Source: Lysobacterales bacterium (GTDB taxonomy: Bacteria > Pseudomonadota > Gammaproteobacteria > Xanthomonadales > SZUA-5). From it: a stretch of 64,000 nt of DNA. Every line of letters begins with the position of its first letter. Positions within the stretch are counted from its first letter, which is position 1. Shown here piece by piece: positions 3,706 through 64,000 of this stretch. A program made the translations under genes and the position numbers. The stretch covers positions 58,357 to 122,356 of the forward strand of contig JALHMH010000010.1 in NCBI GenBank assembly GCA_022844165.1, written 5' to 3'. Under the pieces are notes generated by a model, which saw only the letters and a list, made by a program, of their open reading frames with translations, was not told the DNA's origin and did no database searches.

Positions 3706-3984
3706 CTATTGCACTGTCCGGCGAACACTGATCGGCGTCAGTCGTTCAGCTCTTCCCAGCGCTACCATTCTTCTTCGTCAGGCAGTCATTGCACATCGCT
3801 ACTATCGAATCTCGCCAATTTGCGACTGTGATGCCTCGCCAAAGACAAGAGACAAAGGTCCGTTACTTTGGTGGCTTCGAGCAAATCACGGTCGACGTTG
3901 AGCGTCGTACGCGCGGCGAGATCTTGACATCAGTGTGCATCAATGTACCGCAGCATCTGTCCGAGCTTTACGACCCTGGCTAGA

Positions 3985-46446: not shown

Positions 46447-46533
46447 CGAGTTTAATTTGTAACAACACGCAACAGTTGGCGTTATTCAGCGTTCAATTCA
46501 GTGGAGCGCTAACGTCGGAATTTCGGCATGTTG

Positions 46534-46562
46534 TTGACCCTTGCTGTGCGCAAGGCTAACCT
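46534..46562 (+). promoter_or_regulatory. Candidate sigma70 promoter for the giant secreted-protein gene
   Basis: TTGACC-N17-TAACCT in the AT-richer spacer after wecA. It is followed by GAGGGGA 8 nt before ATG 46594. Hexamer match only. Confidence 0.3.
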
Positions 46563-46593
46563 TGGCTTAGGTTTGTATGAGGGGATTCGGATC

Positions 46594-49500
46594 ATGGTTC
46601 GTTTGATCGCAGGATTGTTAGGTGCGACGGCTTGTGTGTTGTCTTCGTCGGCCGGCGCCCAGATCACAATTCAAGATGGCGCCGCACGGGTCCGGTATGG
46701 CGATCTGTCGGATGCGGCTTACCTGACTGCTGGCGTGCCGCAAACGGTGCTGAGCAAGGGTTTGATTCCGCATCTTGCCGGCAGTCAGTTTTCGTATCGG
46801 GTAGCGGGTGATACACGCGAGTTTTCGGTGGTCACGGACTCGCCAGATCAGCCAACGATTACCCCTCCTGGTCCGACCAACACGGCGTTGATTGAGTACG
46901 CGAGTACTGAGTCTGCGCTTCGAAATCTGTTCAACGTCGACATCCAGGACACCGTTGTCGAATCCGGCGCAACGATCACTTACACGCGGGTGGCAACATT
47001 CGAGAACGTCTCCGGGGTCTCGCAAACGCTCACGGTGATGGGCTACGCCGACGACGTGCTGAACTCCGGATTCAACAATGTCAGTGCGACGTTGCTGGTC
47101 CCCAGCAATTCTATCCAGCTGACCAAGGCCAGCTCTACGCTCAATTTCACCGGTGTTGGTGCAACCGCATTTGAGGTCACGGCGTTCCCCGATCTGATCG
47201 ATAGTCTGGAGGATGCTGGGATCACCAGTTTCCTCGACGGTGGATTGCCGTTTTTGCCAACCACCGCGCCGCCAACAAACCCCGGCGACTGGACCGGCGG
47301 TTTCGAGTGGCCCGCCCAGGTCGTAGCGATTGGCGGCACGGCTTCTTACACGATGATTTTTCAGCTAACGGCTGCACCCTTCGGTCCAGGCAGCGATGGC
47401 AGCCACATCGTCAATACCGCAGGAACCATCGTCAATGCGTATGCACCGCTGGATTCCGATCTCACCGCAGGCACGGATCGGCTGTTTGTTCCCGATGTCA
47501 GCGCGTTGACGCTGCCGGTGGCAGCGTGCACAGGCTGCGAGCGCACGCTGTCGAATGGCGATCTGCTGATGATCTATCAGCCACAGGGCGCGTCTATCGA
47601 TACGACGAACACGCTCAATTACGGCAATGTCACAGACTTGGGTGGTGCTGGCCGCTACGAGTTTGTTTACGTCGCCAACGTGATCGATTTCGCGGTCGGG
47701 CCAGATGAAATCGAGTTTTTCCCGTTCGATGGCACCTCTTCACCTGGGCCTGGAAATGGGTTCTCGAATCCTGTTTGCACTGGTCTGCGCTACGACTACA
47801 CGACGACGGCCAATGCGCCCGCGATGGTCGTGCGCGTGCCGCAGTATTCGTTCTTGCGCGTCGAGCCGGGCGCAAGTGTTGTCGCACAAGATTGGAACTG
47901 GGACGGTTCGAGCGCTGCCAGTTTGGGCGGTGTATTGGCGGTGGATGTCGGCGGTCAAACGCAGTCCACCGGCATTATTGAGCTGGGCGGTGCGATGAGC
48001 GCCGACGGTGCGGGATTCCGCGGTGGCAATGATCAGACCACAGGTGCGACGTCATTCACGGCCGACTTTGTGAGCGGCAGCAATGCGCACGGCGAAAAAG
48101 GCGAGAGCGTTGTTGGAACCTTTGCGGCCTACGATGCGTTAGGTGGGCGTTTTGCGCGTGGCGCTCCGGCCAACGGTGGTGGCGGCGCAAACGGAGTCAA
48201 CTCGTCGGGTGGGGGCGGTGCGAATGCCGGCGACCCGGCAGCCTGGACCAATGGTCATGGCGTCCTGGATCCGGCTTTTGCTCTGAATGCGTGGTTGTTA
48301 GACCCGGAAACCCGCGTTGGCCCAGGGCCTTTCACGGTTGCACCGGATAATAGTGGTGGCGGCCGCGGCGGTTACACCTGGTCGAATGCGAATCAGGATG
48401 CTTTGGTCGTCCCGCCTGGCGATCCATCGTGGGTGGGCGACAATCGCCGAGTGGTCGGCGGTCTCGGCGGGCGGCCGTTGAGTGGCGTCGTGGCAGGCGA
48501 TGCGTATCGGCGGGTGTACTTTGGCGGCGGTGGTGGCGCAGGCGAGGTGAACAATTTGAATCCGCGCCGAGGCGGTGATGGCGGTGGCTTCGTCTTTGTG
48601 CTTGCGCGCCGAATCGAGGCCTTTGGCCCAGTCAACCCCCGCATCAGTGCGAACGGAGCGAACGGACAAGGATCGACGGCGGCGCCTTTGGACGGCAATG
48701 GTGGCGGTGGCGGTGGTGGTTCGGTGGTTGTGACCACCTCCGAGAATCATCCGTTGCCGGCGACGCTGGAGATTCAAGCCAATGGCGGCGCAGGCGGTTC
48801 CCATGGCGTTGTGAACCCCAATGGTGAGGGCGAGGGCGGTGGCGGTGGCGGTGGCGCAGGCGTGGTTTTGGTATCGCATTCGAGTGCGATCGAATCGGTG
48901 GCGGGCGGCTTGCGCGGCGTGACGCTTTCAACATCACTCACAGAGTTCCCGGCAAACGGTGGTACGAGTGGAGCCGCGGGTGAGGAAGGCGCGGCACCCG
49001 ATCGCGACGGCCCGGCGTCGCCGTTGGTCTGCCTGACTGGCCCCGATTTTACAACCCCTGTGACAAACGCTTATTTCGAAGCGGAGCGATTGGACCGCAG
49101 CAAGATGCGAGTGCGTTTTGATTCTGCGTCGGAAGTGGCACACGCGGGCTTTTTCGTACTAGGCAGCCGCCGCGAACGATTGAGCGGGTTCATTGCTGCG
49201 AGCGGCAGAAGCGGCGCCGAAGCCAAAGCCTACGAAGTGGTGATCGACGATTTGGGTATCACGGAACTGTATCTGGCCGACATCGACGTACGTGGCAAGG
49301 AGACGATCCGCGGCCCCTTCGAAGTTGGCAAGCGTTTTGGTGCGGCGCCTACGGTGGTGCGCTACAACTGGAGCGAGGCACAGCAGCAACTGTCCAGCTA
49401 TCGAGCTGCCACTCGCGGTATGGCCAGCGGAATCGCGAAAATCGGAGTGCGCGAGCGCGGCATGGTGCGCGTAACGCATGAACAACTCATCGCCGCTGGC

Positions 49501-51531
49501 ATCGATCTGAGCGGCACGCCCGGCAGTCAGATCGCAGTCCGCACCGACACAGGGCCGGTACCGCGCCGTGTGCGAGGTGCAGCGCTGTTTGGCGTTGGCT
49601 CGTCGATCGAGTTTTTTGGCGACGCTAAAGCAACCTTGTGGAGCCAAGATCGCTTTTACCTGATTGAGGCCGATGCCAGCAGCGCAGTCGAGATGGGGTT
49701 GGTAACACGTGCAGTCAGTTCTGGCTCGACTTCGAACTACACCGCGGAACTGACCTACGCTCCGCAGAATGCTTACAACGAAGTATCGCCAATCGGCGAT
49801 CCCTGGTATGCGGATCGATTGGTTTCGCAGGGCGGTCTGGCCAGCAAGACAATCAGTTTAAGTGGCCCGGCATCCATTGGGAATGCCGAACTCGACGTAC
49901 TTGTCTGGGGCGGTATCGACTGGCCAAGCCGTGGCGACGATCATTCGATTCGCGTGCGACTCAATGGTCAACTGGTTGCGTCCGAACGGTTCGACGGTTT
50001 AGCCAGCAAACGTATTCGAGTGCCGGTGACGTTGAGCGGCACGAACCACCAGATCGTGATTGAGGCGCCGGGCGATACCGGCCAACCGGCAGATATCATC
50101 CATATCGAATCTGCAACCTTGCGCTACACGGCCGCAGCGAGTGGTAACGGCAGTACGTTCTTCGGGCAGGCGCTGCAAGGTACGCGCAGTGACACGATTT
50201 TCCAGGATCGTACAGGTGACGGAATGGACGCTCCGATTGCGGGCGTGATCACCGTCAATAACGTCTCTGGTGCGGATTTGCGTGCGTACCGCATTGTCGG
50301 CGGCAGTGCAACTGAGTATCAGGTGAGCGGCAGCCCAGTGGCCGTGTATGCCGAAGGGTTTTCGGATGCCGCAGAACTATGGGTTGGGCCAGCGGCACAA
50401 TTGCGTGCTCCGCAATCCATCAGCGTTGCACCCGCTGCAACCAGTTTGTTCGGCGCATCTGCCGATTGGCTGGCGATCACGCATGGCATGTTCAGCAATG
50501 CGCTGAACGACCTGGCAAGCCGTCGTCAGAGCCAGGGACTCAGTACGAAGATTGTCAATGTTGAAGCGATTTACACACGCTACAGCGCGGGCAACCCGAG
50601 TCCTGTGGCCATTCAGCGCTACATCAAAGACGCACGAGCTCAACTGGGTACGGATTACGTCGTGCTGGTCGGTGCCGACACGACGGATGCGCCCGGGTAC
50701 GAAAACTCCGGATCGATCAGTTTTGTGCCCACGCCGTACGCCACGACCAGTATCTTTGTCCGCTACGCGCCTGCCGATCCGCTGATGGGCGATATCAACG
50801 GCGATGGCATGGCCGAAGTGGCGGTGGGACGACTGCCGGTACGCACACTCGCCGAGGTACAAGAAGCGGTTCGCAAGATATTGGCGTACGAAAATCAACC
50901 AGCAGCAAACCAAATGACGTTGGCAGCAGGTCCTGAAGACACCAGCGCGGTTTACCAAAACACGTTCGCGGAATCGAGCGAAGCGCTGGCAGCTGGATTG
51001 CCAAACGCCTGGACCATCAGTCGGGTTTATCAAGACGTTCTGGGATTGAACCCCGCCCGTCAAGCGCTGGTCGACGCATTCAATGCGGGCCGTAGTGTTG
51101 TGTCTTACGTTGGTCACTCAGGCCCAAGTCAATGGACCTTTGATCCGATGTTCGATATCAGCCAGGTACAAGGCACCAGTAGCGATCCGAACCGGCCTAA
51201 CCTGGCAAGCAGCGTAAACCAGCCGATCGTGCTGCAGTTCGCCTGCTGGACAACGTACTTCGTGTCGCCGACAGCCAATACCATGGCGCAGGCGCTCATG
51301 TTGACGCCAAACAGGGGCGCCAGTGCGATCGTAGGTGCAACCGTGCTGCTGGATCAGGCTTCGCACGACGCCATGATGGTGGCTGTATCTGACCGTTTGG
51401 TAGCGGGCGCGCGAATTGGCGACGTGGTCAATGCTGCCAAAGCGGAATTGAAAGCCCGTCCAGGCGGCGCTGGACCCGAGATTCTATTGGGCCAGGTCAT
51501 CCTGGGCGATCCAGCACAGCCGATTCGCTGA
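46594..51531 (+). CDS. Giant secreted protein: signal peptide, unknown N-region, glycine-run-rich region, C-terminal peptidase C25 (gingipain/PorU-like) domain, 1645 aa
   Basis: Signal peptide MVRLIAGLLGATACVLSSSAGA-Q. Poly-Gly blocks lie at about 47920-48960 (GGGGANGVNSSGGGGANAG, YFGGGGGAG, GGDGGGFVFVLARRI, GNGGGGGGGSVVV, GEGEGGGGGGGAGVVLV). The C-terminus (from about 50460) has the C25-type pattern GRSVVSYVGHSGPSQW (His codon 51114-51116) and QPIVLQFACWTTYF (Cys codon 51244-51246). Confidence 0.8.
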   Translation: MVRLIAGLLGATACVLSSSAGAQITIQDGAARVRYGDLSDAAYLTAGVPQTVLSKGLIPHLAGSQFSYRVAGDTREFSVVTDSPDQPTITPPGPTNTALIEYASTESALRNLFNVDIQDTVVESGATITYTRVATFENVSGVSQTLTVMGYADDVLNSGFNNVSATLLVPSNSIQLTKASSTLNFTGVGATAFEVTAFPDLIDSLEDAGITSFLDGGLPFLPTTAPPTNPGDWTGGFEWPAQVVAIGGTASYTMIFQLTAAPFGPGSDGSHIVNTAGTIVNAYAPLDSDLTAGTDRLFVPDVSALTLPVAACTGCERTLSNGDLLMIYQPQGASIDTTNTLNYGNVTDLGGAGRYEFVYVANVIDFAVGPDEIEFFPFDGTSSPGPGNGFSNPVCTGLRYDYTTTANAPAMVVRVPQYSFLRVEPGASVVAQDWNWDGSSAASLGGVLAVDVGGQTQSTGIIELGGAMSADGAGFRGGNDQTTGATSFTADFVSGSNAHGEKGESVVGTFAAYDALGGRFARGAPANGGGGANGVNSSGGGGANAGDPAAWTNGHGVLDPAFALNAWLLDPETRVGPGPFTVAPDNSGGGRGGYTWSNANQDALVVPPGDPSWVGDNRRVVGGLGGRPLSGVVAGDAYRRVYFGGGGGAGEVNNLNPRRGGDGGGFVFVLARRIEAFGPVNPRISANGANGQGSTAAPLDGNGGGGGGGSVVVTTSENHPLPATLEIQANGGAGGSHGVVNPNGEGEGGGGGGGAGVVLVSHSSAIESVAGGLRGVTLSTSLTEFPANGGTSGAAGEEGAAPDRDGPASPLVCLTGPDFTTPVTNAYFEAERLDRSKMRVRFDSASEVAHAGFFVLGSRRERLSGFIAASGRSGAEAKAYEVVIDDLGITELYLADIDVRGKETIRGPFEVGKRFGAAPTVVRYNWSEAQQQLSSYRAATRGMASGIAKIGVRERGMVRVTHEQLIAAGIDLSGTPGSQIAVRTDTGPVPRRVRGAALFGVGSSIEFFGDAKATLWSQDRFYLIEADASSAVEMGLVTRAVSSGSTSNYTAELTYAPQNAYNEVSPIGDPWYADRLVSQGGLASKTISLSGPASIGNAELDVLVWGGIDWPSRGDDHSIRVRLNGQLVASERFDGLASKRIRVPVTLSGTNHQIVIEAPGDTGQPADIIHIESATLRYTAAASGNGSTFFGQALQGTRSDTIFQDRTGDGMDAPIAGVITVNNVSGADLRAYRIVGGSATEYQVSGSPVAVYAEGFSDAAELWVGPAAQLRAPQSISVAPAATSLFGASADWLAITHGMFSNALNDLASRRQSQGLSTKIVNVEAIYTRYSAGNPSPVAIQRYIKDARAQLGTDYVVLVGADTTDAPGYENSGSISFVPTPYATTSIFVRYAPADPLMGDINGDGMAEVAVGRLPVRTLAEVQEAVRKILAYENQPAANQMTLAAGPEDTSAVYQNTFAESSEALAAGLPNAWTISRVYQDVLGLNPARQALVDAFNAGRSVVSYVGHSGPSQWTFDPMFDISQVQGTSSDPNRPNLASSVNQPIVLQFACWTTYFVSPTANTMAQALMLTPNRGASAIVGATVLLDQASHDAMMVAVSDRLVAGARIGDVVNAAKAELKARPGGAGPEILLGQVILGDPAQPIR

Positions 51532-51555
51532 CCGAATACGCTCAACCATTGCTCA

Positions 51556-51590
51556 CCGACGCCCGGCATCGCCGGGCGTCGGCGTTTTGG
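51556..51590 (+). terminator. Rho-independent terminator of the giant gene
   Basis: CCGACGCCCGGC-ATC-GCCGGGCGTCGG gives a perfect 12-bp GC stem with a 3-nt loop, followed by CGTTTTGG. It starts 25 nt after the stop. Confidence 0.8.
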
Positions 51591-51625
51591 GGCATAGTTC
51601 GGCCTTCGATGGCGCCGAATTTGCG

Positions 51626-52393
51626 ATGGGAACAATGCTCGACCGCTTGAAGCGAGCCTATGCGCGCAGAAACAACGCAGCTTTTTGGCGATGGAAGCTG
51701 GCGCAATGGACTGGTTCTCCGACCGCGGCTGTCTCGAATCCGTTGGCCGCTTACCCACTGATCGTGCGCACCCGAACGACGGACTGGTCTGTTTACCAGC
51801 AGATCTTCGAAGAGGTTGAGTATCAATGCCTACCTGGTGACTTGAGTCCAGTCGTGATCGTCGACCTTGGCGCCAATGTTGGGTACTCCTCTGCCTATTT
51901 CCTGACCAGGTACCCGGCCTGTTCCGTGATTGCCGTTGAGCCGGATGCGGACAATTTCGCCGCAATGGAACGGAACCTTCGCGCCTATGGTGCGCGGGTT
52001 CAAACGCTTCTGGCGGCGGCCTGGTCGTCGCCAGGGCGTCTGGCGTTGCGCACAGACGCATTCCGGGGTGGCGGCGCCTGGGCTCGACAAGTTCAGGCGG
52101 ACAACGATGGAAAAATCGAAGCGATCGATATTGACGCGCTGATGCAGCGCTATCGGTTGCCGAAGATCTCAATACTGAAAATGGACATCGAAGGCGCCGA
52201 GGTTGAGGTCTTCAAAGGGTCGTTGGACTGGCTCGATCGCGTTGACGTGCTAGTGGCAGAACTGCACGACGACAGTAGCTTCGGACCCGCAAGTCCGACG
52301 GTCATCCCGGAGATGCACCGGCGTGGGTTTCGGTCCTGGACTCACGGCGAGTTGATCGTATTTCGTCGCCCCAAGGTCAGCGATAGCCGTTAG
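51626..52393 (+). CDS. FkbM-family methyltransferase (fourth copy, stand-alone), 255 aa
   Basis: VIVDLGANVGYSSAYF and ILKMDIEGAEVEVFKG motifs. The start is placed after the terminator, because the track start at 51587 lies inside the terminator U-tract. Confidence 0.75.
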   Translation: MGTMLDRLKRAYARRNNAAFWRWKLAQWTGSPTAAVSNPLAAYPLIVRTRTTDWSVYQQIFEEVEYQCLPGDLSPVVIVDLGANVGYSSAYFLTRYPACSVIAVEPDADNFAAMERNLRAYGARVQTLLAAAWSSPGRLALRTDAFRGGGAWARQVQADNDGKIEAIDIDALMQRYRLPKISILKMDIEGAEVEVFKGSLDWLDRVDVLVAELHDDSSFGPASPTVIPEMHRRGFRSWTHGELIVFRRPKVSDSR

Positions 52394-52544: not shown

Positions 52545-53640
52545 ATGGAAACCAGCCCACTCGCCGCCAAACTTGTTGACCTGCGCCAGCGTGTTGAAGC
52601 GCTCAGGGGGTTTCTTTGACTTCGAGAACAAAAAGGACCGCCTTGACGAAGTCAGCCGGGAACTTGAAGACCCGTTGATTTGGAACAACCCGGAGAAGGC
52701 CCAGGAGTTGGGTCGCGAGCGCGCCCGCTTAGAGTCGACGGTCCGTGAGCTCACTGAGTTGCTGCAAGGCGCGACAGATGGTCAAGAATTGCTGCAAATG
52801 ATCATTGCCGAAGACGATGCTGTTTCATTCAGGCAGCTCGAAGCCGATGCGCTCAGCCTGGAGGTGCGGATCGCGCGCATCGAGTTTCAACGCATGTTTG
52901 GCAATCCAATGGATCCAAATCCGGCCTATGTCGACATTCAGGCTGGCGCTGGCGGTACCGAAGCGCAAGATTGGGCCGAAATGCTGCTGCGCATGTACCT
53001 GCGTTGGTGCGAGCGCAAAGGGTTCAAGACCGAACTCCTGGAAGTGAGCGCTGGCGACGTGGCTGGGATCAAGAGCGCGAGCCTGCGTGTCGAAGGCGAC
53101 TATGCGTTCGGCTGGCTGCGCACCGAGATCGGCGTGCATCGACTGGTGCGCATTTCGCCATTTGATTCCAACAAGCGGCGCCACACGTCGTTCGCGTCGG
53201 TGTTCGTGGCGCCCGAAGTCGACGACAACATCGAGATCGATATCAATCCGGCGGATCTGAAAACCGACGTGTATCGATCCAGCGGCGCAGGCGGGCAGCA
53301 CGTCAACAAGACCGAGTCCGCCGTGCGCATCACGCATGTGCCGAGCGGCGTAGTGGTGGCCTGTCAGACCGAGCGCAGCCAGCACAACAACCGCGACCGA
53401 GCGATGAAGATGCTCAAAGCCAAGCTCTACGAGATCGAAGTTCAGAAGCGTAACGCCGAGAAGGACCGACTCGAAGCGACCAAATCGGACATCGGCTGGG
53501 GCCACCAGATTCGCTCGTATGTGCTTGACGATGCACGGATCAAAGACCTGCGTACCGGCGTCGAGCGTCGCGATACGCAGACGGTGCTTGACGGCGATCT
53601 CGACGACTACGTTGAAGCAAGCTTGAAGCAGGGGCTCTGA
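52545..53640 (+). CDS. prfB: Peptide chain release factor 2, expressed by programmed +1 frameshift: join(52545..52616,52618..53640), 364 aa
   Basis: Frame 0 reads [24 protein letters not shown] then TGA. The +1 frame continues [12 protein letters not shown]... with the RF2 SPF motif (RISPFDS) and GGQ (SGAGGQHVN). The first 52 residues of track ORF 52462.. are spurious. Confidence 0.93.
52605..52620 (+). promoter_or_regulatory. prfB +1 frameshift site (internal SD + CTT TGA C slippery/stop)
   Basis: AGGGGG TTT CTT TGA C, compared with the E. coli paradigm AGGGGG TAT CTT TGA C. Confidence 0.9.
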
Positions 53641-53700
53641 TGCCGCTCGCTGTTCTATCCGGCGACGCAGGTCTTTTCGTTTGGGGGTTCCGTTGAATCG

Positions 53701-53914
53701 AGAGCGAGGGCACGAGGGCACGAGGGCACGAGGGCACGCGCTTGGTTCGAGGTGTCTGGCGTCCTTCCCGAATAGAACTTCGTCTTGGTTTGTTCGTCAG
53801 CCACCGAGGCGTTCATTGACTCATACCGTCGATGAGTGTCCGCGTCGCATTTCCCTCAATGACCTCGAACGAAGCACGTACCCTCGTGCCCTCGTGCTCT
53901 CGTGCCCTCGCTCT
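53701..53914. repeat. Composite inverted repeat (MITE/REP-like): 53-nt arms made of tandem octamers, 108-nt spacer
   Basis: The left arm (53701-53753) contains (CGAGGGCA)x4. The right arm (53862-53914) is its reverse complement, (GTGCCCTC)-type x4. By manual alignment 49 of 53 positions are complementary. It lies in the prfB-lysS spacer. Confidence 0.75.
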
Positions 53915-54036
53915 TCACGCCAATTTGTTCTGATGTCAACGGCTGAAGCCGCGTCTGGCGTCTCGGTGCGAGGCTTGTTGCAATTCCCTTCGTCACTCCT
54001 CCACCCGCCACCGACCACCGACCAAAGCGTCGCGCC

Positions 54037-55551
54037 ATGGCGCGACCTAAAGACGATATGACCGACGACAACCACATCATTGCTGAGCGCCGCGCCAAGC
54101 TCGCTCGTTTGCGCGAGGCCGGCGTTGCCTTTCCGAACGACTTTTCGCCGACCGAGCTTGCAGCCGTACTGCAATCCGAATACGCGGACAAAGAGCGCTG
54201 GGATTCGGCGGCGTTAGACGCATTGGATCGCTCGGTCATGATTGCAGGCCGGCTGATGGCTAAGCGCGTGATGGGCAAAGCCGCATTCGCAACACTCAAG
54301 GATCGCTCGGGCCAGACGATTCAGGTGTTCTTGCAGCAGGCCACGCTGGGCGATACTTACGAGGCGTTCAAGGGTTACGACATCGGCGACATCGTCGGGG
54401 CGGGTGGACCGCTGATGCGCACCAAGACCGGCGAGCTGAGTGTGCGTGCAGCGACGCTGCGACTACTGACGAAATCGCTGAGGCCCTTGCCCGACAAGTG
54501 GCACGGACTTGCCGACACCGAAGTGCGGTATCGCCAGCGTTATGTGGACTTGATCGTCAACGACGAAGTGCGCCAGACCTTCGTGATGCGCTCGCACATT
54601 GTGCGTTTCATCCGCCAGTTTCTGGAGCGCCCGGAATACGGATTTCTGGAAGTCGAGACGCCGATGATGCACCACATCCCCGGCGGCGCTACGGCGCGCC
54701 CGTTCGTCACGCATCACAATGCGCTGGATTTGCAGTTGTACCTGCGGGTCGCGCCTGAGCTGCATTTGAAGCGACTGGTCGTCGGCGGCCTTGAGCGGGT
54801 CTACGAAATCAACCGCAATTTTCGCAACGAGGGCGTCAGCACGCGGCACAATCCTGAGTTCACGATGCTCGAGTTCTATTGGGCGTATGCGACATTCGTC
54901 GATCTGATGGACCTGACAGAGCGACTGTTGCGCGAGCTCGTATCCGAGGTTTGTGGCAGTGAACGAATCGACTATCAAGGGCAATCGATCGATTTCGGAG
55001 TACCGTTCGCAAGATTATCGATGACCGACGCGGTGTGCCAGCAAAACCCGCAAATCGCACGGGCCGACTGTCGCAACGCTGACGCGCTCCGCATGCACTG
55101 TCAGCAATTGAAGATTCACGTGAAAGCCGATTGGGGCTGGGGTCGATTGTTGCAGGAGATTTTTGAGGCGACTGTTGAAAGCACGCTGACGCAGCCTACC
55201 TTCATCACACACTATCCAGCAGAAACCTCGCCGCTGTCTCGTCGCAACGACGTTGATAACGAAGTGACCGATCGGTTTGAGTTGTTTATCGTCTCTCGCG
55301 AGTTGGCGAATGGCTTTTCGGAACTGAACGATCCGGAGGATCAGGCAGAGCGATTCATTGCGCAGGTGCAGGCCAAAGATTCTGGCGACGCAGAGGCGAT
55401 GCACTACGACGCCGACTACATACGCGCGTTGGAGTACGGCATGCCGCCGACTGCGGGCGAGGGGATCGGTATCGACCGTCTTGCGATGCTGCTGACCAAT
55501 ACAGCATCGATCCGCGACGTCCTGTTTTTCCCTTACCTGCGGCCCGAATAG
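54037..55551 (+). CDS. lysS: Lysine--tRNA ligase (class II), 504 aa
   Basis: [24 protein letters not shown]-terminus. Class II motifs [22 protein letters not shown]-type and [12 protein letters not shown]. Conserved prfB-lysS synteny. Alternative start ATG 54058. Confidence 0.92.
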
Positions 55552-55643: not shown

Positions 55644-58600
55644 CTAATGGGTGTCCGCAGAATCGCGCGTCCGCAGAATCGCGCGCGGTGCAAGCGCCGT
55701 ATATCGTCGCAGCCAGGCCTGCTGCCAGTTGAAGACGGTCAGCAACAGCGCGGGCAAAAATACCAACGTAACGATGGTCGAGTACACGAGACCGAAGAGC
55801 ACCACGGAACCGAGGCCGCGATAAAGCTCGGTGCCGGCGCCCGGAATCAGCACCAGCGGGGCCAGACCACAAACGGTTGTCAGCGTAGACATCAAGATCG
55901 GTCGCAGGCGCGAGGCAACCGCACCGTGCACCGCATCTGCCGCGCTTTCAGCGCCCTCGGCCAGGCGTTGGTAGGTCTCGTCGACGATCAGGATCGGATT
56001 GTTGACGACTGTGCCAAGCAACACCAGAAATCCGAGCAGTGTGATCATGTCGAGAGGTTGCGAGATTGCGGCCAAACCGATCAGCGGCAGCGCACCGCCG
56101 ACAGCGTTCAGCAGCTGCAGCCCAAGAATGCCGCCTGCAACGCCGAGTGGTACGGTGGCCATGACCAACAGCGGCCGTCCCCAATGGCGGAAGACCGCCA
56201 CGAGCAGCAGATAGCACAACAACACGGCCAACGCGAAGTTTCCAGCGACCGCAGCTCGAGTGGCTTCCAACTGATCGCTGGCTCCGGAGAAAGCCATGGA
56301 AACGCCTTGCGGGATCTCGCCAGCGCGGCGCATCGCCTCGACCAGCTCGCTGCGCACACGTTCGACGCCAGCTTGTAGCGCTACGCTGCGCGGCGGCACG
56401 ATGCTGATCGTCACGGTACGCTGGCCATCGATCCGCCGCACGTTTTCGGTGTCAGCCGTTTCCACCAGATCGGCCAGAGCGCCGATCGGCAGCACGTTCC
56501 CGTTCGGCGTCGCCAGCGGCAGATCGCGCAGGCGTTCGAGTTGCTGGGCGGCGTCGGTGTTGCCATAGAGGAAGATGTCGACTTTGTCGTCGCCGACGAT
56601 CAATTCGTCGACAAACGCACCGTCGCTGAGGGCGGCCACCGAGTAGCCGAAGCTTCCGGCGTCGAAGCCAACCTCGGCCAGGCGCTCCCAGCGCGGGTGC
56701 AGTTCCACCAGGGGTTGATTCAGGTTCAGCGTGGCCGGTTCAGAGGCGACACGCGCACCCTCGAACATGCTCTCTGCGCGGCGCAGCACACGCGCGCCGA
56801 CCTCGAACAGTTGCTGCAGATCGGTTCCAGCGATATCGAGGTTGATGCTCCGCGAACCGCCGTCGTTACTGGAGATGATCGAGCCGCGCGCGGAGAACGC
56901 GCGCATGCCGGGGAAGGCACGAAAACGCGCATCGAGGGCATCCATCAGCGCATCGATGTGTGCGGGATCCTTGGGTTCGCCGATCATGCGCAAGCCACCG
57001 GGGCTGACGCTCAAATTGTAGTAGGCAAGTGCCGGCATATCGGTCTCGCCGCGTGCGAAGCGCTCCGGCGGATCCTGCAAGTGCGGTTTCAGGTCATCCA
57101 TGATTTGCCACGCGATGGCCGTCATTTCGGTCAGGTTGTATCCCGGCGGCGCGATCATCCGCGAGAACGTCTTCGGCTCCTCGCCCTCCGGCAAATACTC
57201 CGCCGACGGCGTCAGAAACAGCACCACCGCAGCCGTCGTCAAAACGGTACCGAGCAACACGCCTGTGCGCCGGGACGCAGTGCAATGCAATGTCGCCAGC
57301 GACGCACCGACGCGCGCAAACCACGCTGCACCCGGCGCTTTGGACTGCTCAGAGATTCCCAGGCCACGATGTCCTACCATCGTCGGGACAACGTACAACG
57401 CGACCGCCATGGACGCCAAAATCGACGCCGAAATCGCAATCGCGATGTCCGAATAGAGTTGTCCGGCTTCCTCCACGATGAAAAGAATCGGCGCGAACAC
57501 GAGCATCGTGGTCATGGTCGACGCCAACACCGCCGCCCAGACGCGACGCACGCCGGCAACCGCGGCTGGAAAGCGCGCCAGACCTCGGCGCCGCGCCTGA
57601 TCGATACTCTCAAGCACCACAATCGTATTGTCGACAGTCATGCCGATCGCAAAAGCAACGCCAGCGAGCGAAATCACATTCAAGGTGCGCCCGGCGAGCA
57701 ACAAGCCGACGAATGCCGCTACCGTGCAGATCGGGATGGCAATGACGCCGGTGAGCGTGGCCCGGCCCGAGCGCAAGAACAGATACATCATCAGCGTCGC
57801 GAGGACCGCGCCCAGCGCCAGATTGCTCCAGACGTTGGCAACCGAATCTTCAACATAGCGCACGTCATCGGAACTGACGATCACCTCCAATCCCAGCGCT
57901 GCCAACTGATCGCGATTGACCGCGTCGATCGCAGGGAGCAACGCGCGCTTGGTGGCGATGACATTCGACCCTGGCGTGCGTTGAATCGATAGCGACAGTG
58001 CAGGCTGCCCATTGTAGAAACTCACCTCGCGCCGTTCGTAGTGATCCAGGCGGACCTGCGCCACATCGGACAGGCGCACCAGCGTGCCGCCGCGTTCGGC
58101 CACGATCAGCGAGCGGATGTCGTCAAGATCGTCGAACCGCCCCACGGTGCGTAGCAAGTAACGACGCTTGCCGCTGTCCAGATCGCCGCCGGAACTGTCG
58201 CGATTGCGCGCACGCAAAGCATCACGCAGTTGCGTCAAGCGCAAGCCGCGCTCGGCGAGCAGCGTGGGATCGACCTCGATACGCACTTGCCGTTCAGGGC
58301 CACCGCCGACGTTGACGCGGGCCACGCCCGCGACACGCTCCAGGCGCGGCCGCACGTAGCGTTCCAGATGGTCGCGCAACATGTCGAGATCCAACTCGAT
58401 GGGGCTGTCGGCGCGCGGAGCGACACGCAAGTGCATAAACGCGTTGTCGGAGAATGAACTGGCCGACAGGCTCGGCTCGTCGACGTTCTCCGGATAACCC
58501 GAAACCTGGCTCAATGCGTTACTGGTTTGAATGAGCGCCTGGTTGATATCAACGCCAAAAGGAAATTCAAGTCGGATCGTGGCCCGACCAGTGCTTGCGC

Positions 58601-58844
58601 CGGACACCATGCGCTTCAGGTTCGGCAAGGTGCGCAAGAACTGCTCTTGCTCCAGCAGGATCTCCTGCTCGACATCCTGCGGCGTAGCGCCTGGCCAATG
58701 GGTATCGACACTGATCGTGCGCACGTCCAAGTCGGGGATCATCTGCACCGGCACGCGCAATGCGGCGCTGGTGCCGAGCAGCATCAGGATGAGCACGGCC
58801 ACGGAGATCAGTGCGCCCTGGCGCAGCAATGTCTCGAAGTTCAT
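55644..58844 (-). CDS. RND efflux transporter permease (AcrB/HAE-type), 1066 aa
   Basis: Twelve-TM, two-large-loop architecture, with MNFETLLRQGALISVAVLILMLLG...VPVQMIPDLD at the N-terminus. ATGA overlap with the upstream adaptor gene. Confidence 0.92.
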   Translation of the reverse strand: MNFETLLRQGALISVAVLILMLLGTSAALRVPVQMIPDLDVRTISVDTHWPGATPQDVEQEILLEQEQFLRTLPNLKRMVSGASTGRATIRLEFPFGVDINQALIQTSNALSQVSGYPENVDEPSLSASSFSDNAFMHLRVAPRADSPIELDLDMLRDHLERYVRPRLERVAGVARVNVGGGPERQVRIEVDPTLLAERGLRLTQLRDALRARNRDSSGGDLDSGKRRYLLRTVGRFDDLDDIRSLIVAERGGTLVRLSDVAQVRLDHYERREVSFYNGQPALSLSIQRTPGSNVIATKRALLPAIDAVNRDQLAALGLEVIVSSDDVRYVEDSVANVWSNLALGAVLATLMMYLFLRSGRATLTGVIAIPICTVAAFVGLLLAGRTLNVISLAGVAFAIGMTVDNTIVVLESIDQARRRGLARFPAAVAGVRRVWAAVLASTMTTMLVFAPILFIVEEAGQLYSDIAIAISASILASMAVALYVVPTMVGHRGLGISEQSKAPGAAWFARVGASLATLHCTASRRTGVLLGTVLTTAAVVLFLTPSAEYLPEGEEPKTFSRMIAPPGYNLTEMTAIAWQIMDDLKPHLQDPPERFARGETDMPALAYYNLSVSPGGLRMIGEPKDPAHIDALMDALDARFRAFPGMRAFSARGSIISSNDGGSRSINLDIAGTDLQQLFEVGARVLRRAESMFEGARVASEPATLNLNQPLVELHPRWERLAEVGFDAGSFGYSVAALSDGAFVDELIVGDDKVDIFLYGNTDAAQQLERLRDLPLATPNGNVLPIGALADLVETADTENVRRIDGQRTVTISIVPPRSVALQAGVERVRSELVEAMRRAGEIPQGVSMAFSGASDQLEATRAAVAGNFALAVLLCYLLLVAVFRHWGRPLLVMATVPLGVAGGILGLQLLNAVGGALPLIGLAAISQPLDMITLLGFLVLLGTVVNNPILIVDETYQRLAEGAESAADAVHGAVASRLRPILMSTLTTVCGLAPLVLIPGAGTELYRGLGSVVLFGLVYSTIVTLVFLPALLLTVFNWQQAWLRRYTALAPRAILRTRDSADTH

Positions 58845-59899
58845 GGCGTCGGCTCGACGATCACCGCATCCCCGTCGCGCAGCTGCTCATTACCGCGAAT
58901 CACAACGCGCTCAGCTCCGCTCAAGCCCGATTCGATCGCCACGCGCTGACCCTGGCCTTCCCGGATGCGCACGCTGCGCAAGCGAGCAATCGAGAGATCG
59001 CCCTGAGTCTCAACAACGAACAGGCTGTAGCCACCGTCTGGCTGACGGAGCAGAGCATCGCGCGGGACCGCCAACGCCGCGGCCGTAGCCGGCAGCGAAA
59101 TTTCGGCACGCGCCGAAGTGCCCGGAATCAACAGCGCGTCTTTGTTGTCGACCGCCAGGCGCAGCAAGAACGTACGCGCATTCGCTTCGCTGACCGGCAC
59201 CTTGGCGACCACCCGCGCCGGCAATTCAACGCCCGGCATCGCATCGGGGAGCACCGTCGCACTAAACGCGCCGAGTAAATCGGCATGTCGCTCCTGCGGT
59301 ACGCGCACGTCGAGCCATACCGAATCAAGCGCCACCAGGCGCAACAGGGCATTTCCTCGCGACGCCCACTGCCCAACCTCGGTCATGCGCTCGGCGATCA
59401 CGCCAGCAAACGGTGCCGGCAACGTGTGCCGATCGAGTAGCGCCATTTGCTCCGCCTGCGCGGCGCGCGCCGAGGCAAGCGCCGCCAGTGCGAGCTGCTC
59501 GGCTGCGCGAAGCGTGTCCACTTGACTGGTCGGAATGAACTTGCGTTCGGCCAGCGTTTCGCCCTCGCGCAATCGCCGGCTCGCCTCGCTGGCTGCGGCG
59601 GCGGTCTCGGCCGTCGCCGCCGCCGCACGGGCGAGCGTCTGGCGTGCGACGGTTGTGTCCAGTTTCAGCAGCGTTTGCCCAGCCCTCACCCGATCTCCCG
59701 TGTCGACATCGATCGAGGCCACCAGCCCGTCGACGCGCGGCGACAGCTCCGCTGCACGTTCCGCGGTCAGCGTGCCGGTCAACGAGAAGCGTTCGCCGAA
59801 GCTCGCCGTTTCCGGCGTGGCAACACTCACTCGTGCGACCGGGTTGGCAGGCGATGATGAGGCGACGCCGGCCAAAATCAAAGCGGCAAACAAACGCAT
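58841..59899 (-). CDS. RND efflux periplasmic adaptor (membrane fusion protein), 352 aa
   Basis: Signal-like N-terminus MRLFAALILAGVASS. Coiled-coil hairpin (AAATAETAAAASEASRRL...), then beta-barrel/MP domains. The start is chosen at Met76 of track ORF 58841..60124, whose first 75 residues are Arg/Cys-rich. Confidence 0.85.
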   Translation of the reverse strand: MRLFAALILAGVASSSPANPVARVSVATPETASFGERFSLTGTLTAERAAELSPRVDGLVASIDVDTGDRVRAGQTLLKLDTTVARQTLARAAAATAETAAAASEASRRLREGETLAERKFIPTSQVDTLRAAEQLALAALASARAAQAEQMALLDRHTLPAPFAGVIAERMTEVGQWASRGNALLRLVALDSVWLDVRVPQERHADLLGAFSATVLPDAMPGVELPARVVAKVPVSEANARTFLLRLAVDNKDALLIPGTSARAEISLPATAAALAVPRDALLRQPDGGYSLFVVETQGDLSIARLRSVRIREGQGQRVAIESGLSGAERVVIRGNEQLRDGDAVIVEPTP

Positions 59900-60257
59900 G
59901 CATAGAGGCTCGTCAGCGGTTTGCCCGACGATACACAAGGCGGATACGGACGCGGTGAAGAACGTATGCCTGGCGAGGCTTCGCCTCAGACTGCCGAGCA
60001 TTGTGGGCTTCGCCAGACACCGTACTTGCCACAACCCCCATCGAGCGCTGCGCGCATTTCCGGCCCGGCGGCACAGCCGCCGATCGTTCGGCTCGGCACA
60101 CGCCTTGCGGCGTGTCAGCGCCAATCCTCACCCCCCTTTGTACTCAAGGGGGTTTCAACAGGCAAAGCCGCTCCGACGAAAACTCGATTCAAATGGCAAG
60201 ATCCCGCTCAGTCAGGGACTTTAGCTTACGATGGTCCGACTTCGTCGACCACAGGAA

Positions 60258-62517: not shown

Positions 62518-64000
<1,483 letters not shown>

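Follow-up and report, generated by a model that had tools for sequence, protein, structure and literature searches.

The closest published description of the element treated here is that of the paired 'global regulator binding sites' of Geobacter metallireducens (Aklujkar et al. 2009, PMC2700814). These form dozens of intergenic opposite-strand pairs in three classes; a class 1 site has four GTTGCTYN octamers, a class 2 site three TCTCCGTS[Y] units and a class 3 site five MTYCTGA units. The pairs of class 3 lie ~70-115 nt apart, the inter-site distance being reported as variable, and insertion sequences of the IS110 and IS481 families are found at fixed distances from class 1 sites. The sites were catalogued and proposed to bind a host regulator, but were never characterised (PMC2700814). 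We analysed a 64,000-nt stretch of an uncultured Lysobacterales genome (contig JALHMH010000010.1, positions 58,357 to 122,356; the whole stretch is referred to as the window), in which the spacer between prfB and lysS holds a long inverted repeat whose arms are tandem arrays of the octamer CGAGGGCA. As in Geobacter, where the pairs consist of 3-5 tandem 7-9-mers, this is a multi-copy, intergenic, opposite-strand arrangement of short tandem units, and, as in the alignment read for class 3, the 5' side of each strand is purine-rich. The likeness is one of description; the phylum and the unit sequences are different, and no insertion sequences at fixed distances were seen near the Lysobacterales arrays, unlike the situation in class 1. 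We estimate a probability of roughly 0.65 that this inverted repeat belongs to a non-coding, MITE/REPIN-like family of foldback repeats, dispersed and lineage-specific, in uncultured, Rhodanobacteraceae-like Lysobacterales, and that the spacer acquired or kept one copy of it. As a member of a dispersed family, the element counts as selfish or domesticated repetitive DNA rather than as a control element dedicated to lysS.

The family shares properties with two better known groups of bacterial repeats. Like MITEs (miniature inverted-repeat transposable elements; PMC3184786), its members are 147-230 nt long, non-coding and without a transposase gene, with terminal inverted repeats around a core; they occur in many dispersed and mostly intergenic copies, with an occasional in-frame gene insertion and decay to partial copies. 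Like REP, BIME and REPIN sequences (PMC2817692, PMC3116915, PMC3733652), they are high-copy extragenic elements found between co-directional or convergent genes and in ABC-transporter operons, and at a given intergenic site related species each carry a sequence type of their own. As in REPINs, two inverted halves surround a less conserved spacer, and long-term vertical persistence, a conserved recognition sequence and the lack of a recognisable target-site duplication are further points in common with REP and REPIN sequences. However, the unit of a REP is an imperfect palindrome of 20-40 nt that bears a GTAG or CGTC tag (PMC3733652), whereas each half of our element is a plain tandem array of CGAGGGCA in direct orientation, palindromic neither as a whole nor in part, and the 26 aligned arms have neither of the tags at their ends (...AAAAG-CGAGGGCA...CGTGC). 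The stem is also much longer (~53 bp) and the spacer is 83-142 nt. An earlier description of this DNA, made from its letters and a list of open reading frames (the sequence-only reading), had proposed a MITE or REP-type element and had called the tandem-octamer arms unusual for either. The first proposal holds in the main, as the family is multi-copy, dispersed and non-coding, has terminal inverted repeats and is absent from the prfB-lysS spacer of several relatives, but it fails on the unit and tag of a REP; the second is fair for classical MITEs and REPs, although a similar build had been catalogued in G. metallireducens (PMC2700814). We also considered an integron attC site and rejected it: the ends of the elements (T[C/G]AAAAG / CTTTT[G/C]A) do not resemble the outer core sites RYYYAAC...GTTRRRY of attC, which belongs at the 3' ends of promoterless cassettes beside an integrase, and the neighbours here are housekeeping genes.

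Within the window, the element stands out clearly. A repeat search found 49 of 53 arm positions (92%) complementary across 53701-53914, in exact agreement with the arms, complementarity and 108-nt spacing of the sequence-only reading (Table 1). The four head-to-tail octamers reported for the left arm reappear in Tandem Repeats Finder (TRF) output as 4.2 copies of CGAGGGCA at 53705-53738 with 100% matches; on the right, TRF reports 4.2 copies of CGTGCCCT at 53877-53910 with 88% matches. The family consensus immediately 5' of the octamers is T[C/G]AA[A/G]AG in the 26-arm alignment. A BLAST match to the related element at locus L103 spans 53694-53917, and an nhmmer arm profile matches 53696-53752 and 53861-53921, for a total length of about 214-228 nt (206 nt between outer octamer edges). 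This inverted repeat is by far the longest and best in the window, where no other inverted pair is as long as 30 nt or, at such a length, 85% complementary. The two-unit 16-mer (allowing 2 mismatches at most) has 6 matches in the window, always within the element, with an expectation of 0.08. The single octamer has 1+1 occurrences outside the element in 64 kb, against a mean of ~4 for 8-mers of the same composition, and the idea of a Chi, KOPS or DNA-uptake-type oligomer was rejected on this lack of over-representation. The arm profile matched only the two arms, and no further or decayed copy was found in the 64-kb window. The small ACTCAT/ATGAGT hairpin noted earlier in the centre is present (53819-53824 and 53832-53837), as are three crossing open reading frames (53681-54061, 53821-54174 and 53856-54299), two of which were tested and match no protein family.

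Table 1. Features of the prfB-lysS region, in window coordinates.
Feature	Position	Strand	Basis or remark
prfB (release factor 2), upstream neighbour	52546..53640	+	NCBIfam TIGR00020, 1.5e-149
Whole inverted repeat	arms 53701-53753 and 53862-53914		53 nt each, 108-nt centre; repeat search
Left terminal segment GAATCGAGAG...	53694..53704	.	weakly conserved outer terminus; alignment of 26 arms
Left arm core, four perfect tandem CGAGGGCA octamers	53705..53736	+	TRF, 26-arm alignment
Left inner arm CGCGCTTGGTTCGAGGT	53737..53753	+	long (L) class signature; consensus CGTGCTTCGTTCGAG
Centre, 108 nt	53754..53861	.	sequence not conserved among copies, no special folding
Right inner arm ACCTCGAACGAAGCACG	53862..53878	-	reverse complement of L-class signature
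Right arm core, octamers TACCCTCG TGCCCTCG TGCTCTCG TGCCCTCG	53879..53910	-	two substitutions relative to consensus
Right terminal segment CTCTTCACGCC	53911..53921	.	family consensus CT[C/T]TT[G/C]A
Perfect 18-nt palindrome GTCGCGCCATGGCGCGAC	54029..54046	.	outside the repeat element; alignment with L120
lysS (class II lysyl-tRNA synthetase), downstream neighbour	54058..55551	+	NCBIfam lysine--tRNA ligase, 1e-213

The family itself is real: dispersed, non-coding, turning over by insertion and deletion, and placed mostly within transcription units. A probe of three tandem CGAGGGCA units, scanned against one genome per species and with all counts as lower bounds, found the array at 119 places or more in public genomes. 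Among the matches listed, 90 array stretches (~76%) are in metagenome-assembled genomes labelled Lysobacterales, Rhodanobacteraceae, 'Xanthomonas sp.' or Tahibacter, with 29 in JANJUH01, 25 in JAXMHB01, 11 in JALHMG01, 10 in CALEZI01, 6 in JAIMJQ01 and 4 in JABAQR01. The sister genome JALHMG01 carries elements of exactly the window copy's build at unrelated loci, namely [A/G]A[A/G]AG + (CGAGGGCA)4 + CGTGC...centre...GCACG + (TGCCCTCG)4 + CT[C/T]TT. Each end has a short A-rich terminus (T[C/G]AA[A/G]AG), exactly four octamers and an inner repeat of ~15 nt that is particular to the size class. At least 10 complete copies and at least 4 solo or decayed arms were found there, whereas the 64-kb window has one copy, so that the element proved to be multi-copy in related genomes. 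The copies of JALHMG01 fall into a short class, always 147 nt (32+83+32; at least 7 copies), and a long class of 202-206 nt with the inner-arm signature CGTGCTTCGTTCGAG (at least 3 copies), to which the window copy belongs by its sequence and length. The window copy aligns over ~225 nt with the elements at L103 and L063, at 75% and 72% identity; outside the element, nothing in either locus matches the window, and the flanks are unrelated. A metagenome scan with a family-specific 26-mer added 4 loci, 3 of them from samples of the window's closest relative. Arrays in other genomes have 3-11 octamers. No blastn match to the element was found in plasmid or phage records, and the octamer array is in no paper that a search for the 16-mer, with both orientations and phases, could find.

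Some matches to the probe are of other kinds. JAXMHB01 and JANJUH01 contain composite elements (e.g., L020:890-1090, L110:1055-1230, L005:3860-4100 and L033), in which a REP-like GC hairpin (GCCCGGCGGCTATGCCGACGGGC or GCCCGCCCGAGAAGGGCGGGC) is followed by CGGAT, by (CGAGGGCA)n with n = 3-11, by a conserved core (CGAAAAGGCTCGCA...GTCAA...) and by reversed octamers; some also bear arrays of GTCCTTTGC and CCCGAGTC. In a metagenome-assembled genome labelled Enterobacteriaceae, the arrays are at contig ends and mixed with CACGAGTC units. Scattered matches come from Streptomyces, Allokutzneria, Acidimicrobiia, Acidobacteriota, Holophagales, Thermoanaerobaculia and Myxococcales (together with the genome labelled Enterobacteriaceae, at L010, L021, L032, L035, L041, L058, L072-L073, L079, L086, L094, L105, L107-L109, L111 and the CAZPJM01 loci). 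These arrays outside the Lysobacterales may be chance simple repeats, coding repeats or related elements.

Copies of the family are positioned much as REP and BIME sequences are. By crude gene calls based on GC3, the neighbours of 14 copies are co-directional in 13 cases, convergent in one and divergent in none. Two copies in L011 interrupt an ABC-transporter operon, one between the binding-protein and ATPase genes and the other between the ATPase and permease genes; such an operon is the classical position of REP and BIME sequences. TonB-dependent receptors and transporter components recur near the arrays. For example, copies lie directly upstream of paralogous genes of ~1,050-1,090 aa at L077:1660-1806, L081:2494-2525 and L117:4426-4572, and in the same setting at L063:927-1132, L130:3155-3354 and L042:7236-7379. 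The downstream gene in L117 is a TonB-dependent receptor by Pfam, and L042 and L081 are apparently orthologous sites in two genomes, both occupied. One decayed copy of the short class (L106:5608-5808, JALHMG010000035.1, minus strand) lies in frame inside glgB, with one intact four-octamer arm and one degenerate arm. The reading frame of glgB stays open, and in comparison with E. coli GlgB (1m7x) the copy adds 61 residues between the CBM48 domain and the catalytic domain. Only an insertion can account for this copy. It recalls, as a single case and with no sequence relationship, the Rickettsia palindromic elements, a palindromic repeat found in frame within protein-coding genes (cited in PMC3184786).

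The arms and the centres of the elements have had different histories. Over 26 arms, 12 mismatches in 832 octamer positions correspond to 98.6% identity to the consensus, and each of these arms has four octamers. In contrast, once the inner arms are removed, most pairs of centres are no more similar than shuffled sequences. A subgroup (L099, L106a, L113 and L117a) is still recognisably related; the window centre has no significant similarity to 3 of the 4 other long-class centres and a borderline similarity to that of L103 (p = 0.04, shuffle test). The centres do not fold significantly better than shuffles, and their length is fixed, at exactly 83 nt in all seven independent copies of the short class. 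The homologous centres of L106a and L113 have opposite orientations relative to the flanking genes, and any part under selection is therefore the symmetric one. Pairing alone would allow compensated drift, so conservation of the arm sequence needs something more; one compensatory double change across the arms (C>G/G>C) separates L088 from L133. Between the prfB-lysS spacers of L126 and L134, which hold orthologous elements of CGCGGAGA units, 47/50 and 29/31 positions of the arms and left flank are identical, whereas four-fold sites of lysS are 61% identical and the centres are unalignable. Thus, to judge from these alignments, the arms are constant in the long run, whether by sequence-specific selection or by conversion and turnover. 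Loss is also seen: L131:4448-4651, the ortholog of L103:6212-6414 in a related strain, has a 117-nt deletion between GCTTTT repeats that removed half the centre and the right arm, which explains the origin of solo arms elsewhere.

The prfB-lysS spacer itself has a varied content in relatives, and the comparison, proposed by the sequence-only reading, shows that it is not conserved. Spacers were read from the contigs of LysS homologues, with identities given for LysS relative to the window. No element is present in L129 (76%; spacer of 55 nt), L135 (76%; 80 nt) or L136 (72%; 20 nt). L126 and L134 (79% and 80%; 283 and 258 nt) have the foldbacks of CGCGGAGA units mentioned above, at L126:2735-2945 and L134:2260-2420, and L127 and L128 (79%; 208 nt) have a foldback of GCAAAGGAC 9-mers (L127:2825-2935). 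The nearest relative, L120 (91%; 217 nt), is not empty: at the position of the window element it has a different, small foldback of CGAAGACA-like units (3840-3919), which is either a decayed ortholog or an independent insertion. Silent sites between the window and L120 are saturated (48% identity). Relatives' spacers hold foldbacks of differing units, and the site has therefore been occupied repeatedly by one architectural superfamily with lineage-specific units; REP types are likewise known to vary at conserved intergenic sites. One genome, JADJPR01 (that of L126), carries both CGCGGAGA and GCAAAGGAC unit types. Just upstream of prfB it also has an IS630-family (DDE_3) transposase gene (L126:87-1166) and a separate GCAAAGGAC-type foldback (L126:1285-1390), with no link to the IS630 gene established.

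Several observations weigh against a MITE/REPIN-like repeat. At 13 copies we found no consistent direct repeat, including under 2-3-bp models (TA, TNA), and the adjacent bases are themselves inverted (T[C/G]AAAAG / CTTTT[G/C]A). The 8-kb pieces around 133 loci yielded neither an arm pair enclosing a gene nor a parent element or transposase whose ends are those of the family, and an all-against-all BLASTP of 1,802 open reading frames from these loci gave no recurrent transposase-like cluster near the arrays; target-site duplications and parent insertion sequences with matching ends are both hallmarks of MITEs. Nor was a RAYT (Y1 transposase) candidate seen in the 8-kb pieces, as far as they extend. 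Ordinary MITE copies are similar throughout, whereas here the inverted repeats consist of four tandem octamers and most centres are unrelated though equal in length, and the fixed centre length is unexplained by a foldback repeat. Only a single copy is visible within the 64-kb window, and no clean filled and empty pair at short evolutionary distance occurs among the relatives examined. In the closest orthologous pair, L088/L133 (97% identical overall, same centre orientation), the arms (94%) are no better conserved than the centre (93%) or the flanks (~95-96%), and long-term arm conservation could stem from gene conversion or turnover rather than selection. Lastly, an effect on prfB-lysS at the RNA level is inferred by analogy with REP/BIME, ERIC and Correia elements (for a review, PMC3184786), and the stem runs into CTCTTCACGCC with no U-tract, where an intrinsic terminator has a GC-rich hairpin and a U-tract; it is therefore not a canonical intrinsic terminator.

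We postulate that the octamer arrays of the foldback repeat are a recognition array for a trans-acting protein, which could be a DNA-binding protein of the host or else a transposase or recombinase by which the elements are spread or maintained. Such recognition would explain why the arms are conserved in sequence beyond the needs of pairing. A bolder proposal, which we hold only tentatively and think doubtful, is that the element is a member of a previously unnamed superfamily of bacterial foldback replicators, whose arms would be arrays of a species-specific 8-9-mer (CGAGGGCA, CGCGGAGA, GCAAAGGAC or CGAAGACA), with a cognate protein maintaining the arrays for long periods at orthologous operon spacers and the centre serving as a length-constrained spacer. 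These replicators may be analogous to the REPIN-RAYT system, with recognition by a direct-repeat array instead of a palindrome. Terminal inverted repeats made of tandem short units, and non-autonomous copies that are little more than two arms, are also known from the eukaryotic Foldback-type transposons (Drosophila FB, Galileo and Tetris; PMC3573991, PMC4079207). However, those have arms of hundreds to thousands of bp and known transposases (P or MULE), and the likeness is an analogy of architecture only.

The units share one further property. The 5' arm units of all unit families (those of the window, L126 and L127, and Geobacter classes 2-3, PMC2700814) have Shine-Dalgarno-like cores (GAGG, GGAG, AAGGA), and the 3' arm units have the anti-Shine-Dalgarno-like complements CCTC, CTCC and TCCTT, all substrings of the 16S rRNA 3' tail ACCUCCUUA. 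The purine-rich bias could account for these cores, or they may have a meaning, in which case the transcribed form might interact with ribosomes.

If the trans-acting protein were a nucleoid-associated protein or global regulator of the host, the paired octamer blocks could be chromosomal binding arrays with a function at the DNA level, and not mobile at all. We consider this unlikely, although much of the evidence on the arms can be read in this way. The arms are conserved in sequence and not just in pairing, with the unit number always four; a centre of fixed length and free sequence is what would be seen if two protein-bound sites had to be a set distance apart; the arms of the orthologous L126/L134 element are kept far above silent sites; several copies lie just upstream of TonB-dependent receptor genes; and the same build is in the literature for G. 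metallireducens (PMC2700814). However, the copies are mostly inside operons and not in promoter regions, and one is inside the glgB reading frame. Differing unit families at the same spacer, two of them in one genome, would need several cognate proteins. In addition, no such protein has been identified, and the Geobacter proposal (PMC2700814) is itself just a proposal.

Two further explanations are much less probable. Conserved inverted repeats around non-conserved centres of similar length are also found in invertible promoters with one master invertase, and homologous copies do not all carry the centre the same way round with respect to their neighbouring genes, as would be the case if site-specific or homologous recombination between the 53-nt arms flipped the 108-nt centre and switched the downstream gene. 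We think that a phase-variable segment of this kind is very improbable: neither the centre nor the spacer has a promoter-like site, most copies are between genes of one operon, no linked recombinase gene was found, the L088 and L133 centres share their orientation, and lysS, an essential housekeeping gene, is an improbable target of phase variation. There is an equally slim chance that, in RNA or in single-stranded DNA, a G-quadruplex of the G-rich arm, (GGGCACGA)4 = G3N5G3N5G3N5G3, competes with the hairpin as a structural switch. Each of the 26 arms has exactly four G-triplets, the minimum for an intramolecular quadruplex, and ViennaRNA with quadruplex energies prefers it in the isolated arm (-11.4 vs -8.1 kcal/mol). 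Once the centre is attached, however, no quadruplex is predicted, the full hairpin being at about -139 kcal/mol; moreover, the foldbacks of relatives at the same spacer use units with no G3 runs (CGCGGAGA, GCAAAGGAC and CGAAGACA), and arrays elsewhere vary in length (3-11 octamers).

What the foldback repeat might do once inserted depends on whether it is transcribed. We infer that copies are transcribed with their neighbours because they lie almost exclusively between co-directional genes. The arms would then pair; according to the computed folds, a transcribed element should form a ~53-bp stem between prfB and lysS. Folding, a check suggested by the sequence-only reading, gave a long stem on both strands. 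The + strand RNA of a 236-nt region has a predicted energy of -139.1 kcal/mol (z = -13), matched by 0 of 200 shuffles, and the - strand RNA of the element region -132.3 kcal/mol (z = -10.7), whereas the isolated 108-nt centre folds no better than shuffles (z = -1.3 and +1.2). A stem of ~50 bp in a prfB-lysS co-transcript, as had been suggested, is consistent with these predictions. No promoter-like site was found in the prfB-lysS spacer, and no terminator-like site within 53300-54300. Such a stem would separate the prfB and lysS parts of the co-transcript and decouple both cistrons, acting as a target for a double-strand RNase, as a barrier to 3'-exonucleases or as a partial block to RNA polymerase.

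Correia elements of Neisseria and the ERIC and YPAL elements of enterobacteria are 100-170-nt intergenic repeats that are co-transcribed with their neighbours and form long hairpins. These hairpins, like those of REPs, are cut by RNase III or RNase E, or block exonucleases, changing the relative expression of cistrons. This background reportedly goes back to De Gregorio et al. for Correia and ERIC elements and to Newbury et al. 1987 for REPs as mRNA stabilisers. Unlike the family described here, Correia, ERIC and YPAL elements have conserved centres, and Correia elements have TA target duplications.

A structure in the 5' region of lysS could instead be a dedicated cis-regulatory leader or attenuator that evolved in place, as the sequence-only reading had allowed. 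The position and the very stable predicted structure are as expected for a leader, but this explanation is scarcely credible in view of the multi-copy family between unrelated genes at other loci. No Rfam match, T-box and other leaders included, reaches the gathering threshold across the window; at a permissive E-value, 53600-54100 gives a single chance-level snoRNA match (E = 5.4) and no T-box, riboswitch or other leader. Furthermore, the spacer is not conserved, with just 20-80 nt in three relatives, the centre can lie either way round between its flanking genes, and the symmetric structure folds as well on one strand as on the other. A foldback chimera or other artefact of assembly is practically dismissed: although the window copy is in one assembly only and the exact LysS protein on a single NCBI contig, the element type is present in many independent assemblies from different assemblers, orthologous copies are conserved between assemblies, and the window arms differ at 4 positions, which a foldback chimera would not give.

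The genes on either side of the element are ordinary. prfB has the programmed +1 frameshift site CTTTGAC at 52614-52620. The lysS start is more likely ATG 54058 than the mechanical open reading frame start at ATG 54037, because the former is conserved with L120, and the prfB-lysS spacer is therefore ~417 nt. The 18-nt palindrome GTCGCGCCATGGCGCGAC lies 11 nt upstream of this probable start, and the mechanical start falls inside it. It is kept in L120, unlike the remainder of the spacer, and may be an operator or a small hairpin. Between the element and the palindrome is a short tandem repeat (CCACCGA x2.4, 54008-54024). Another (GTCCGCAGAATCGCGC x2.1, 55653-55685) lies at the 3' end of the RND transporter gene directly after lysS; genes for an RND efflux pump and a membrane-fusion protein occupy 55644-60124, and a gene for a cytochrome cd1 nitrite reductase (NirS-type) is at 62518-63999. 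Upstream of ~46 kb is a long polysaccharide-biosynthesis cluster. No transposase was found among the window open reading frames scanned. In most relatives recJ precedes prfB (L126, L127 and L134-L136 were compared), whereas in the window (46528-52393) and L120 (1-2587) prfB is preceded by a 1,667-aa protein, with weak PorU/AgmC-like matches (peptidase C25 in L120), and an FkbM-family methyltransferase. This difference indicates that the region upstream of prfB was rearranged in that lineage.

Identification of the element removes three spurious open reading frames and accounts for the unusually long prfB-lysS spacer. As a genome repeat it is ordinary; it is unusual in the build of its arms, in the contrast between these invariant arms and centres that are fixed in length but free in sequence, and in the way different unit types have succeeded one another at a single operon spacer. 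The family combines four-octamer arms, near-invariant arms with diverged centres, a fixed centre length, placement in operons and replacement of units at one site. If a cognate protein exists, the family would be a second, independent, long-lived partnership of repeat and enzyme like REPIN-RAYT, and the 8-nt array would be a compact recognition module. If there is an effect at the RNA level, it would amount to a widespread, lineage-specific uncoupling of neighbouring cistrons, in this case those of release factor 2 and lysyl-tRNA synthetase. The likeness to the paired tandem-repeat sites described in Geobacter in 2009 suggests that this architecture is more general than one clade.

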